This document shows positions 11,346-15,094 of a stretch of DNA of 64,000 bases, piece by piece. A program made the translations under genes and the position numbers. The notes beneath the pieces are model-generated. The model saw only the letters and a list, made by a program, of their open reading frames with translations, was not told the DNA's origin and made no database searches. Position 1 is the first letter of the stretch. Each line of letters opens with the position of its first letter. The DNA is from Candidatus Calditenuis fumarioli (GTDB taxonomy: Archaea > Thermoproteota > Nitrososphaeria_A > Caldarchaeales > Calditenuaceae): NCBI GenBank assembly GCA_030059665.1, contig JANVYR010000001.1, positions 128,001 to 192,000 of the forward strand, read 5' to 3'.

Positions 11346-12872
11346 TCAGCCCCTCGCCTCCACCGACAGGGCCTGCGAGACCGCTCCCGCCACGGCCATG
11401 GCCACCGCCAGCCCCGGGTCGTGGGCTAGGCCCCTTCCCGTGAGGGTTTTGGAGTTGACAACGACCACGACCTCCGCCTCAGCGGGGTACCTGTCCGGGT
11501 CCGGCGGGACGTACAACGCCAAGTCCTCCAGGCGCACGTCGCCAACAAGCGCGCTGACCGCTCTCCTCATCGCATCGATCGAGGCGGAAACGGTCGACCT
11601 TCCGATTCCCCTGGACTCCATCCGCTCGCCCCTGACGTTGAGGACGAGGCTGCAGGCGAAGGTCTCGCCGTCCTTCGCGTACGAGATCGACTCGACGGAT
11701 ATCGATGGCTTCGAACCGTCCAATACGCCTATCACGTCCCTCAGCAGCAGCTCCTCCGTCACCCGCATCCCCATATCGCCCAGCTCCTTCACCCTCTCCA
11801 GCACGCGCCTCGTCTCCTCGTGGCTGAGGTTGAAACCGTGCTGCTTCAGGACCTCAAGCACCGCATGCGTCCCCGAGTGCTTCCCCAGCACTATCCTCCT
11901 CCTCTTACCGACGACCTCTGGCATGACCGGTTCGTACGTCGCAGGGTTGTTGATCACGCCGTGGACGTGGATACCGCTCTCGTGCGAGAAGGCGTTGTCA
12001 CCCACCACGGCCTTGTTCTTCTGGACGACCATCCCCGTCAGCCGGGAGACGAGCCGCGAGACGCTCGCCAGCTTCTCGAGCCTTATGCCTGTCTTTACGC
12101 CGTACAGCGTCTCCAGCGCCAGCACCACCTCCTCGAGGCTCGTGTTGCCAGCCCTCTCGCCGATGCCGTTCACGGTGACGTGGACGATCTCCGCTCCGCC
12201 CTCGACGCCGGCCAGCGTGTTGGCAGTTGCGAGCCCCATGTCGTCGTGGCAGTGAACGGCCACCGGAAGTCCCGTGACGCCCTTCACCTCCCTCACCAGC
12301 TCCTTCATCACCTCCGGTATCGCGACGCCCACCGTGTCCGGGATGTCGACGCTGTCCGCCCCCGCCTCTGCCGCTCCCCTGTACACCTTCAGGAGGAACT
12401 TCCTTTCGGACCTCGTGGCGTCCTCGCAGGAGAAGTGGACCGTCACGCCCCTCGACTTGGCGTACTCGACCATCTCGACGGCCCTGCTGTAGACCTCATC
12501 CGGCGTCATCCGGAGCTTGTACTTCATGTGGAGCTCCGAGGTGGCTATGAAGACGTGGACCCAGTCGACCCCAGCGTCGACGGCCCTGTCGATGTCTCCC
12601 TTCTCGCACCTGCTCAGCGCGCAGATTTTCGACGGGAGCCCGAGCCTAGCGATGGACCTGACGGCCTCCATCTCGCCCCTCGAGACCGCCGGATATCCGG
12701 CCTCGATCACCGCTACGCCGAGATCCGCCAGCGCCTCCGCTATCCTCAGCTTCTCCTCCACCCTCAGCGCCACACCGGGACTCTGCTCGCCGTCGCGCAG
12801 CGTCGTGTCGAAGACCTGGACCCTCTCCGGCAGCGATGGATTCCGTCCCAGAACGAACTCTCTCCAGACCAT
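11346..12872 (-). CDS. leuA: 2-isopropylmalate synthase (LeuA/CimA family)
   Basis: DTTLRDGEQ, HCHDDMGLA, GERAGN, HESGIH, GKHSG plus C-terminal regulatory domain. ATG 12872 follows a GAGGTGA SD (GTG 12881 is the alternative). LeuA versus CimA is not resolved. Confidence 0.85.
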   Translation of the reverse strand: MVWREFVLGRNPSLPERVQVFDTTLRDGEQSPGVALRVEEKLRIAEALADLGVAVIEAGYPAVSRGEMEAVRSIARLGLPSKICALSRCEKGDIDRAVDAGVDWVHVFIATSELHMKYKLRMTPDEVYSRAVEMVEYAKSRGVTVHFSCEDATRSERKFLLKVYRGAAEAGADSVDIPDTVGVAIPEVMKELVREVKGVTGLPVAVHCHDDMGLATANTLAGVEGGAEIVHVTVNGIGERAGNTSLEEVVLALETLYGVKTGIRLEKLASVSRLVSRLTGMVVQKNKAVVGDNAFSHESGIHVHGVINNPATYEPVMPEVVGKRRRIVLGKHSGTHAVLEVLKQHGFNLSHEETRRVLERVKELGDMGMRVTEELLLRDVIGVLDGSKPSISVESISYAKDGETFACSLVLNVRGERMESRGIGRSTVSASIDAMRRAVSALVGDVRLEDLALYVPPDPDRYPAEAEVVVVVNSKTLTGRGLAHDPGLAVAMAVAGAVSQALSVEARG

Positions 12873-12882
12873 CTCGATCACC

Positions 12883-12951
12883 TCAGAGGAGGAGCAGCGG
12901 GGAGGGCGCCTCGATCACGCTACTCGTCGCGCACCCCAGGAACGAGCTCAT
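12883..12951 (-). CDS. Putative leucine-rich leader peptide MSSFLGCATSSVIEAPSPLLLL upstream of leuA
   Basis: ATG at 12951, four tandem Leu codons (CTG CTC CTC CTC), TGA at 12885-12883 overlapping the leuA SD. Confidence 0.6.
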   Translation of the reverse strand: MSSFLGCATSSVIEAPSPLLLL

Positions 12952-13006
12952 TCGGGACCAAGCAATACAGCCCCACCCGCTTGCTCCAACGTCAGAAACC
13001 GGCCTG

Positions 13007-13014
13007 ATTTAAAC
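13007..13014 (-). promoter_or_regulatory. TATA box of the leuA-ilvB operon
   Basis: GTTTAAAT on the minus strand in GC-rich context; predicts a start site near 12985-12988. Confidence 0.6.
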
Positions 13015-13207
13015 CTACGCTTAGGAGCGTGCCGGTCCTATCCCAGAGGGGAACTTGTCCCGCAGCGCTCCACGAACAAACTGCGAACGACCTGCGAGGA
13101 TTCCCGGATCGATGGGGGTACAACGACACGGGCGATCGCGGCCTGTCGGCCTCGTGATTGCTCAGCTCTCTTTGCGTTTTTTACCGCGAAGGGAACCCCA
13201 TCACCGG

Positions 13208-15094
13208 ATGGAGGGCCCTGTGATACGGAGGCTGATCCGAGAGGCGAGCGAGGCCCTCGAGGCCGCCGGCCTGAAGGACCCGAAGGTGACGCTGACGAAG
13301 TCAGTGAAGTTCGGACTCCTCACGTCCACTTCGTCCTTCGAGGAGGCCCGCAGGACAGGCGTGGATCCCATGGAGAGGGCGAGGTCGGTCCTGGGGCAGC
13401 TCAGGCTTCCGGAGGGCTCGCTGCTCGAGAAGGTCGAGGCCGCACCTCCAGGTTACATCAACTTCCATCCCAGCTGGGGCGAGCTGGCCCGCGCGGTGGT
13501 GAGCGAGGTCCTCGCAGCTCCGGACGCTTACTTCAGGGTTGAGGACGGACCGAGGGAGGTCGTGGTCGAGCACACGAGCGTCAACCCCAACAAGGCGCTC
13601 CACATAGGCCACGCGAGGAACGTCTGCATCGGCGACACGATAGCCCGGGTGATGAGGAAGGCCGGTGCGAGGGTTCTGGTGATCAACTACGTCGACGACA
13701 GCGGCGTCCAGATGGCGGAGCTCCTCCTCGGCTTCCGGCTCCTCGGTTACCCGCTCGAGCCGAGGGAGGGGATGAGGTTCGACGAGTACTGCGGCGACGT
13801 CGTCTACGTCGAGGTCAACAGGAGGGCTGAGGCGGATCCGGAGGTCGAGAGGCAGAGGAGGGAGATAGCGAGGAGGATCGAGCAGAGGGGGACCGAAGAG
13901 TTCGAGCAGGCCAGGAGGGTGGCGCTGATGGTCCTCAGGGACCAGCTCAAGACGACCTCGAGGCTCGGTGCGACGTACGACCTGCTGGTCAGGGAGAGCG
14001 ACGTGGTGGTCACGGGCCTCTGGGCCGAGGCCTTCCGGAGGATGAAGGAGGCCGGACTGGTCAGGTTCGTTGAGGAGGGCCCCAAGAAGGGTTGCTGGGT
14101 CGTGGACCTCTCCGGACACCCGGTCCTCTCGAAGGAGGGAGACGAGGTCTTGGTCAAGAGCGACGGCGCAACCACCTACGTCGCGAGGGACATAGCGTTC
14201 GCGATGTGGAAGATGGGCGCGTCGGAGACGAGGCTCCTCTTCAGGCGCATCGAGCTCGACGGCCAGACCGTCACGATGTCCGACGTCGAGGGCGAGGACC
14301 TCGGGCCCTTCAGATCCGATCTGGTGGTGACGGTGGTGGACTCGAGGCAGAGGAGGCCGCAGGAGGTGGTCAGGTACGCGCTGGAGAGGATGGGCGTCAA
14401 GGGCAGGTACGTCCACTACTCGTACGAGCCGGTTGCCCTCAGCAGGAGGTCGGCGGAGCTCCTGGGAGTGAAAGCCGAGGGCGAGGTGGTCCACATGAGC
14501 GGCCGGAGGGGACTGTACTTCAAGGCGGAGGAGGTGTTAGACAAGCTGAAGGAGGTCGCGGCCCGCGAGACAAGGGCCAGGAGGCCCGATTGGAGCGAGG
14601 AGAAGGTGAGGGAGGTGGCCGAGGCGCTCGCGGTGGGAGCGTTCAGGTACGGCATGCTGCGGATCGAGAGCGACCGTCAGATCGTCTTCGATCTGGAGGA
14701 GTCGCTCCGCCTCGAGGGAGACACCGGACCATACCTCCAGTACTCGGTCGTGAGGGCGAGGAAGATCCTGCAGAAGGCCAGGGAAGCGGGAATCGGACAG
14801 ATCGCCCCCGATCGCTCACCACCGGCCGAGCTGAGCGAGCACGAGCTGCAGCTGGTCAGGGAGCTCGCGGTGACGCCGCTGGTGATGGAGGAGGTGGTCA
14901 GGACGCTCTACATCAGGTCGCTCGTGACCCACGCGAGGAACCTCGCCATGCGCTTCAACGAGTTCTACGAGCGGTGCCCGGTCATCGGCAGCGGCGAGTG
15001 GGAGGGTTTCAGGCTCTCGCTGGTCGGCGCTTACGATCGGATCGAGTCGAGGCTGCTGGAGCTCCTCGGCATACCGGTGCTCGACGAGATCTGA
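13208..15094 (+). CDS. argS: Arginyl-tRNA synthetase
   Basis: EHTSVNPNKALHIGHARN (HIGH), KSDGATTYVARD, MSGRRG, GDTGPYLQYS; DALR domain. Confidence 0.96.
   Translation: MEGPVIRRLIREASEALEAAGLKDPKVTLTKSVKFGLLTSTSSFEEARRTGVDPMERARSVLGQLRLPEGSLLEKVEAAPPGYINFHPSWGELARAVVSEVLAAPDAYFRVEDGPREVVVEHTSVNPNKALHIGHARNVCIGDTIARVMRKAGARVLVINYVDDSGVQMAELLLGFRLLGYPLEPREGMRFDEYCGDVVYVEVNRRAEADPEVERQRREIARRIEQRGTEEFEQARRVALMVLRDQLKTTSRLGATYDLLVRESDVVVTGLWAEAFRRMKEAGLVRFVEEGPKKGCWVVDLSGHPVLSKEGDEVLVKSDGATTYVARDIAFAMWKMGASETRLLFRRIELDGQTVTMSDVEGEDLGPFRSDLVVTVVDSRQRRPQEVVRYALERMGVKGRYVHYSYEPVALSRRSAELLGVKAEGEVVHMSGRRGLYFKAEEVLDKLKEVAARETRARRPDWSEEKVREVAEALAVGAFRYGMLRIESDRQIVFDLEESLRLEGDTGPYLQYSVVRARKILQKAREAGIGQIAPDRSPPAELSEHELQLVRELAVTPLVMEEVVRTLYIRSLVTHARNLAMRFNEFYERCPVIGSGEWEGFRLSLVGAYDRIESRLLELLGIPVLDEI

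Follow-up and report, generated by a model that had tools for sequence, protein, structure and literature searches.

We analysed the leader of the leuA-ilvB operon, a leucine/valine operon of the hot-spring archaeon Candidatus Calditenuis fumarioli, within a 64,000-nucleotide stretch of contig JANVYR010000001.1 (positions 128,001 to 192,000; hereafter the window, whose own numbering is used throughout). The leader, leuA and ilvB all lie on the minus strand, and their coordinates are given in the direction of transcription. An original prediction, made from the letters of this DNA, had placed here a leucine-codon leader peptide and a structured 5′ leader acting together as a ribosome-mediated leucine sensor. 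Comparison with related genomes now shows that the start of this leader is defined by a short module, AUUGCUY (where Y is U or C), which stands behind a Shine-Dalgarno (SD) sequence and constitutes a predicted initiation site specific to leuA, with two conserved reading frames starting there. The leader as a whole may be a ribosome-read sensor of leucine or branched-chain amino acid supply, in which decoding of the CUY codon would pick the frame and the longer of the two frames would couple ribosomes to leuA; we put this reading just short of an even chance.

The regions upstream of leuA were compared in 41 genomes of the order Caldarchaeales and in further public contigs, and a phylum-wide sample of leuA 5′ ends was used for occurrence outside the order. 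The start module was counted in 41 sequences of two classes, comprising 31 Caldarchaeales leaders and 10 sequences from Thermoprotei. In the window, the module U-AUU-GCU-U (12967-12960) can also be read as A-UUG-CUU: the AUU opens a long leader frame, and the UUG, followed by the Leu codon CUU, opens a mini open reading frame (mini-ORF) in the +1 frame. ATTGCT is invariant in all 41 sequences, and the base that follows it is always a pyrimidine (T in 26, C in 15). Because tRNA-Leu(GAG) reads both of the resulting CUY codons, this choice is silent for leucine in the +1 frame, and it alters the third residue of the AUU frame freely (W, C, R, S, Y, P or Q). Upstream of the module lies a weak leader SD with a GGUG core (GGGUGGGG; 12978-12971), the 3′ end of the 16S rRNA of the same genome being GGAUCACCUCC. 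One of GGTGG, GGTGA or GAGTGA is found 3-6 nt before the ATT in 31/31 Caldarchaeales leaders, and also at crenarchaeal leuA genes. The start module occurs a single time in this genome, in which no other leaders carrying it were found, and relatives have one copy per leuA locus, their remaining pattern matches being at the level of a reversed-pattern control. A T-box-like reading of GGGUGGNA, which resembles the T-box core, was also considered and rejected: the motif has no complementarity to tRNA-Leu and no structure, and the 36 tRNA genes found in this genome, those for tRNA-Leu among them, all lack the complement of UAUUGCU.

Both frames that start at the module are constrained. The +1 mini-ORF (UUG CUU GGU CCC GAA UGA; 12965-12948) consists of five codons and a stop, and its closure is conserved, with the +1 frame stopping after 4-9 codons in all 41 sequences and after 5-9 in each of the leaders from Caldarchaeales. 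Multiplied over 17 representatives, the shuffle probabilities of this closure come to ~1e-15, which is a nominal value given that the relatives are not independent. The long frame runs for 27 codons from AUU to UGA (IAWSRMSSFLGCATSSVIEAPSPLLLL; 12966-12883). It is open from the ATT in 31/31 leaders, representing about 15 lineages, for 24-37 codons, and its differences in length are multiples of three. In the other two frames a stop comes early or the length varies, and the +2 frame is unconstrained. The stop of the long frame touches or overlaps the leuA SD, and across the 31 leaders its end falls between -8 and -19 when counted from the leuA start, most often between -12 and -14, the exception being the Caldarchaeum group at +11. 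The middle of the leader is highly variable in both sequence and length, and the peptide is unconstrained there. A canonical start for the long frame is missing in five leaders (L002, L007, L012, L018 and L019), and in L007 a TGA stands two codons upstream of the ATT. Since the frame is kept open, with an SD-adjacent stop and no conserved canonical start, we conclude from this comparison that the leader is read by ribosomes from the ATT region at 12966, 15 nt upstream of the ATG at 12951, and not from that ATG.

This conclusion relocates the start of the leader peptide. The 22-codon frame from the ATG at 12951 to 12883, as described in the original prediction, is present and does end in CTG CTC CTC CTC TGA, but its boundaries were wrong, as it is the 3′ part of the conserved frame that starts at the ATT. 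Indeed, the closest relative, whose LeuA is 89% identical, has no ATG, GTG or TTG in frame, and the ATG at 12951 can no longer be held as the leader start. The repeated sequence GTGATCGAG is likewise there in both of the copies first reported (12918-12910 and 12881-12873), but it is missing in the closest relative and is on that account probably lineage-specific; it places a second SD-like sequence, GUGAUC, within the leader frame. The mini-ORF stop and the ATG overlap as ATGA (12951-12948), which would allow reinitiation into the long frame; the overlap is absent from relatives and was ruled out as part of a conserved mechanism.

The long frame closes with the Leu run CUG CUC CUC CUC (12897-12886) and the stop UGA (12885-12883), which overlaps the leuA SD (GAGGUGAUC; 12884-12876), and the SD in turn lies 3 nt before the leuA ATG at 12872. 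All 9 nt of this SD (GAGGTGATC) are complementary to the 16S 3′ end of its own genome. A stop directly 5′ of, or overlapping, the leuA SD is conserved in relatives, well beyond chance, bearing out the earlier observation of stop-SD contact. The same is true of a leader frame that ends in Leu codons before leuA, which held in Calditenuaceae, in Caldarchaeaceae and in the Terraquivivens/Geocrenenecus family, with the run conserved beyond chance. When one sequence is taken per lineage, the Leu share is 28% in the last 10 codons vs 9% in the rest of the frame. The CUY share of the Leu codons in the run is 60-100% vs 31-55% in leuA itself. The tails of genus g4 have Leu, Ile or Val at 9-10 of 10 codons and that of L020 (LLLKLIIL) at 7 of the last 8, while most tails in the Caldarchaeum group (g7) are Val-rich instead. 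The run had been expected to pair with the leuA SD, as in the actinobacterial LEU element. This proved untenable: in most lineages a gap of 0-3 nt separates the run from the SD, and elements so close cannot pair. The only SD available to the run is that of the leader itself, a pairing whose conservation is not significant. In the 31 leaders the spacing from the leader stop to the leuA start is below about 20 nt or the two overlap, as in termination-reinitiation pairs, in which the mechanism works only over distances of less than about 20 nt (PMC10666635).

A leader of the same build is found in three of the four families of Caldarchaeales, namely Calditenuaceae (including HR02-type genomes), Caldarchaeaceae and the Terraquivivens/Geocrenenecus family. 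All three families conserve the Leu-codon run, the stop at the leuA SD and a TATA box, and leuA adjoins ilvB in every leader-bearing lineage. The fourth, AT-rich family has no such leader, and none was seen among the sampled Bathyarchaeia and Nitrososphaerales loci, where leuA sits behind another gene whenever the upstream gene is clear. In the window, the TATA box of the leuA-ilvB promoter (GTTTAAAT; 13014-13007) is where it was first placed, and in relatives its fixed spacing is conserved well beyond chance: the distance from the start of the TATA-like box to the ATT is 42-51 nt in 30/31 Caldarchaeales leaders. Transcription is predicted to start near 12987-12982. The Terraquivivens family lacks ATTGCT, and its leaders have a GUG mini-ORF variant, GUG AGC CAA CUC GAA UAA, with the -1 frame open and no canonical start near the mini-ORF; in four of the seven there is none at all.

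Outside the order, an SD followed by ATTGCTC heads leuA itself in Vulcanisaeta, Caldivirga and Ignisphaera. The ATT is in the LeuA frame in 10/10 of these Thermoprotei sequences, and the +1 TTG-CTC frame stops after 4-7 codons. Three Vulcanisaeta genomes have a TAG immediately before the ATT and no canonical start upstream of the catalytic DTTLRD motif. Among RefSeq-type public records, three of these LeuA proteins begin at the ATT (MAQ...) and others further downstream. Start annotation of LeuA across the three genera (P0001-P0041) is inconsistent, being set at the ATT, at an internal ATA, GTG or ATG, or at a GTG inside the SD.

Other crenarchaeal leuA genes have start-proximal frames of different design. 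In family f13 (Thermoproteus/Pyrobaculum type; L123-L130), G-GGG-CUC forms part of a mini-ORF opened by ATG, and LeuA is encoded in the -1 frame; L126 and L127 offer no canonical start anywhere from the TATA box to DTTLRD. Beside a Leu codon, G-GGG-CUC permits perfect re-pairing at -1, and the A-site codon after a -1 slip would again be GCU; to judge from their sequences, these loci point to a frameshift beside the Leu codon. The f13 mini-ORF (ATG GNT TCG GGG CTC...) is apparently leaderless and lies ~16 nt past the TATA box. In family f20 (Sulfolobales-like; L138-L141) a mini-ORF reads ATG AGT/TCT ATT CTC ... stop, with LeuA in the +1 frame; the LeuA frame of L138 and L139 has no canonical start, and a +1 shift at AUU-CUC would be required there. 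Families f30 (L131-L133) and f19 (L143) carry CTT ATT GTT (Leu-Ile-Val) at the 5′ end of the LeuA frame, right behind the ATG in L131 and behind an in-frame GTG or TTG in L132 and L133. Overall, in five different leuA architectures the reading frame nearest the start has a Leu codon within its first 2-5 codons.

A conserved hairpin switch, the second element of the original prediction, is unlikely because there is no consensus structure, the pairing is driven mostly by composition, the leuA SD is not predicted to be masked and AT-rich leaders fold weakly at 75 °C. The complementarity between the two ends of the leader is real in this genome, where the minimum-free-energy fold pairs a 5′ strand covering the leader SD (12988-12969) with a 3′ strand formed by the Pro-Ser-Pro and first Leu codons (12908-12890), the duplex having an energy of -33.4 kcal/mol (z -3.7; RNAduplex vs 300 dinucleotide shuffles). 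It is not significant as a conserved feature, however, and was dropped as such: the duplex is significant in 4/31 leaders, with a combined z of about -1.8 over 15 lineages that is weakly better than composition predicts, so that most of the pairing reflects composition. In most relatives, too, a C-rich stretch is complementary to the leader SD of the same genome, again no better than composition predicts. The whole-leader fold is no better than shuffles (z -0.90). RNAalifold found no consensus pairs in 18 leaders, and on eight HR02-type leaders (genus g3) it recovered the 5′/3′ helix with almost no covariation, so the proposed check for a covarying helix among relatives went against the switch. 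Sequestration of the leuA SD is not predicted either, the unpaired probability of the SD and AUG being near the leader average at both 37 and 75 °C in 20 leaders, and the leaders of AT-rich relatives fold at merely -3 to -7 kcal/mol at 75 °C. A scan of positions 12000-14000 against Rfam (cmscan, E up to 10) returned two chance-level matches only and no leader family.

In the mechanism that we propose, ribosomes would be placed by the weak leader SD on A-UUG-CUY / AUU-GCU, where, by comparison, two overlapping frames start and where the initiator tRNA is able to form two of three pairs on UUG and on AUU alike. The first elongation step would then be the sensor. With ample Leu-tRNA(GAG), the UUG frame would be decoded and ribosomes would exit early, after 15-27 nt; with slow decoding of CUY, the initiator tRNA would re-pair one base back on AUU, such that GCU is read and the long frame is translated. 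As an alternative to this -1 re-pairing, AUU- and UUG-started complexes may compete, with the AUU complexes prevailing. Ribosomes in the long frame would arrive at the leuA ribosome-binding site and may raise expression of leuA-ilvB, which is the least certain step. This could be achieved through termination-reinitiation, with the stop 8-11 nt upstream of the leuA ATG or overlapping it in Caldarchaeum, or by keeping the nascent leader covered and shielded from termination or decay. The terminal Leu/Ile/Val run would park the ribosome at the leuA SD and may add sensing of Ile and Val. In Vulcanisaeta, Caldivirga and Ignisphaera, the module would feed straight into LeuA. The specific claim that the invariant module is a leucine sensor by start-codon frame choice is a tentative one, with a probability somewhat below even; according to this claim, scarcity of Leu-tRNA(GAG) would cause the initiator tRNA to slip from UUG to AUU, and the LeuA frame (Thermoprotei) or the frame leading to leuA-ilvB (Caldarchaeales) would be entered.

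Several points weigh against sensing by frame choice. AUU initiation by itself would account for the long frame, and the early +1 stops could merely curb wasteful UUG-started translation. Under leucine shortage, the ribosomes that would have to activate leuA should themselves be stalled by the terminal Leu run, and the leuA SD is very strong (9 nt) and not predicted to be masked, such that the need for coupling is not evident. Most of the Leu run is lost in L003 and L019, and the C-CAA-CUC of the Terraquivivens variant is poorly suited to re-pairing at -1. Because related sequences are not independent, the nominal probabilities make the case look stronger than it is, and three metatranscriptome runs gave 0, 0 and 7 reads at the locus, too few to bear on the transcription start or on expression. 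The main rival is the idea of the original prediction with its start corrected: a plain AUU-started leader peptide of 27 codons with no frame switching, at whose terminal Leu/Ile/Val run uncharged tRNAs would stall the ribosome. The stalled ribosome would halt traffic and termination on the leuA SD, relieving its occlusion, or would alter coupling. In its favour, the long frame is conserved, as are the terminal branched-chain codons and the position of the stop on the SD, and a leuA SD that is strong and unmasked is consistent with repression by ribosomes arriving from upstream. Public records already start Vulcanisaeta LeuA at this ATT, and near-cognate codons were found at ~30% of the alternative initiation sites in ribosome profiling of Haloferax (PMC7261190). 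We nevertheless regard it as unlikely: it leaves unexplained the pyrimidine-only base after ATTGCT and the 4-9-codon +1 ORF, the retention of the module on crenarchaeal leuA genes that have no leader run, and the out-of-frame, start-less leuA of f13 and f20. Moreover, a ribosome stalled at the last Leu codons would itself cover the SD, and a clear run is missing in L003, L019 and parts of g7.

Two explanations remain. The leader frame could be a split-off remnant of an N-terminal extension of crenarchaeal LeuA, translated only to deliver ribosomes and with an incidental hydrophobic tail, as would be consistent with the homology between the module and the crenarchaeal leuA start and with the unconstrained middle of the peptide. 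This is improbable in view of the recurrence of the Leu/Ile/Val tail in lineages that cannot be aligned (9-10/10 codons in g4; 7 of the last 8 in L020), the CUY bias of its Leu codons, the dedication of the element to leuA-ilvB, and the start-proximal Leu codon (within the first 2-5 codons) of five leuA architectures. A non-coding element, be it an RNA of the riboswitch type or a leader or promoter-proximal DNA bound by a protein or transcription factor, would fit the strong conservation of the 5′ motif at a fixed distance from the TATA box as well as the stable long-range helix of this genome, and the actinobacterial LEU element was itself proposed to bind protein (PMC1262725). Indels of whole codons with conservation of frame are not expected of a non-coding RNA, however, and neither a consensus structure nor an Rfam match at E<10 was found beyond the two chance-level ones. 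Sequence and length differ widely in the middle of the leader, AT-rich relatives are predicted to be nearly unstructured at growth temperature, and the motif has no complementarity to tRNA-Leu, leaving this explanation very improbable.

Amino-acid sensing by leader-peptide ribosomes is a textbook bacterial mechanism; no published archaeal case of it, and no archaeal Leu leader, was found in the papers searched, in agreement with the original prediction, which knew of no described leucine equivalent in TACK archaea. Enterobacterial leuL (Rfam Leu_leader, RF00512) and the leaders of ilvBN and ilvGMEDA resemble the archaeal leader in having a short translated frame with a Leu (Ile, Val) run right upstream of a branched-chain operon, and, if the proposed sensing holds, in a sensor that consists of the speed of the ribosome at the run codons. 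Unlike a leuL-type attenuator, the archaeal leader has no terminator or antiterminator hairpins (fold z -0.9, no consensus) and no U-tract or T-run; it also differs from these bacterial leaders in its archaeal host and in the lack of an Rfam match and of a conserved canonical start. Because its stop sits on the first gene's SD, the archaeal leader probably has a translational or polarity-based output, unlike leuL. The actinobacterial LEU element (Seliverstov et al. 2005, PMC1262725) is similar in that a Leu-run upstream ORF precedes leuA, the Leu codons are complementary to an SD and there is no obvious terminator. There, pairing between the run and the leuA SD forms the base of a pseudoknot, whereas here the two abut; RNAalifold found no consensus pairs in these leaders, although no search aimed at pseudoknots was made. 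In Actinobacteria, mutation of the Leu codons reportedly left regulation unchanged (PMC1262725). Translational attenuation of the ermC/cat type differs in that the leuA ribosome-binding site is not predicted to be sequestered in a hairpin (37 and 75 °C, 20 leaders), and T-box or other direct tRNA-sensing leaders differ in that there is neither a tRNA-complementary motif nor an Rfam match here.

Parallels to the start module itself are found elsewhere. The AUU start of bacterial infC is conserved and is discriminated by the gene's own product, IF3. AUU is similarly conserved at the start of the regulated gene here, but LeuA has no link to start-codon fidelity, and an overlapping UUG-CUY frame is also conserved at the leuA leader. 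The +1 frameshift of prfB involves two overlapping frames, of which the productive one has no start of its own, an SD-like element a few bases upstream, and a slow A-site codon that reports the supply of the controlled factor. At leuA, too, the productive frame overlaps a short one and lacks a canonical start, and in Vulcanisaeta the productive frame is that of LeuA. In contrast to prfB, the shift proposed for the leuA leader on the basis of its sequence would be -1 rather than +1, would occur at the initiation codon with initiator tRNA (UUG to AUU), and would respond to a sense codon, Leu CUY. A 2016 review of recoding states that no natural use of hungry-codon frameshifting was known (PMC5009743). 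Archaeal and bacterial termination-reinitiation pairs (Huber et al. 2019, 2023; PMC6728339, PMC10666635) have a stop within ~10 nt of, or overlapping, a start, with an SD at the junction, as does the junction of the leader with leuA; the upstream frame here is a regulatory mini-gene and not a partner subunit, and the coupling is putative.

These comparisons define an order-wide archaeal candidate with a precise anatomy, the 7-nt start module of which also stands on the leuA of cultured Thermoprotei (Vulcanisaeta, Caldivirga and Ignisphaera), where it can be tested. If true, frame choice would be a new route for coupling tRNA charging to gene expression without RNA structure, as well as a natural regulatory use of hungry-codon frameshifting. 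Structure-free sensing, if true, would be sensible at 70-90 °C, where leader hairpins melt. Several archaeal leuA genes lack a canonical start, and their annotation is inconsistent; in addition, the leader ORF and mini-ORF are missed by gene callers that require ATG, GTG or TTG.

The leader is followed by three minus-strand genes in a row. leuA (12872-11346) encodes a 2-isopropylmalate synthase of 508 amino acids (Pfam HMGL-like, HCS_D2 and LeuA_dimer; NCBIfam NF002085, 553 bits vs a cut-off of 517), and ilvB (11344-9626), which starts 1 nt past the leuA stop, encodes the large subunit of acetolactate synthase (TIGR00118, 625 bits vs a cut-off of 538); the third, downstream of ilvB, is a DUF2070 gene. 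On the other side, argS is divergent on the plus strand from 13208, and the intergenic region between it and leuA is 335 nt long. Additional leuA copies and leaders were encountered among the relatives. A short contig of a Calditenuis-genus assembly (G003 contig C25, positions 635-904) carries a Caldarchaeum-type module (GTGAGATTATTGCTT) and a leuA N-terminus, and is either a further leuA copy or a contaminant of the bin from a different member of the order. Two distinct leuA copies occur among Caldarchaeaceae g7 genomes, at the loci L120 and L122 of G040, which has both, and at L121 and L119 of G036/G032; each copy has its own ATTGCTT leader, with a frame ending 11 nt into leuA. A different leader is found ~190 nt upstream of leuA at L153 (family f10, genus g18), where an SD and a 24-codon ATG-started upstream ORF with no Leu run are followed by a hairpin (ACTGTT...AACAGT) and T-runs immediately before the leuA SD, an arrangement that looks like a terminator-type attenuator.

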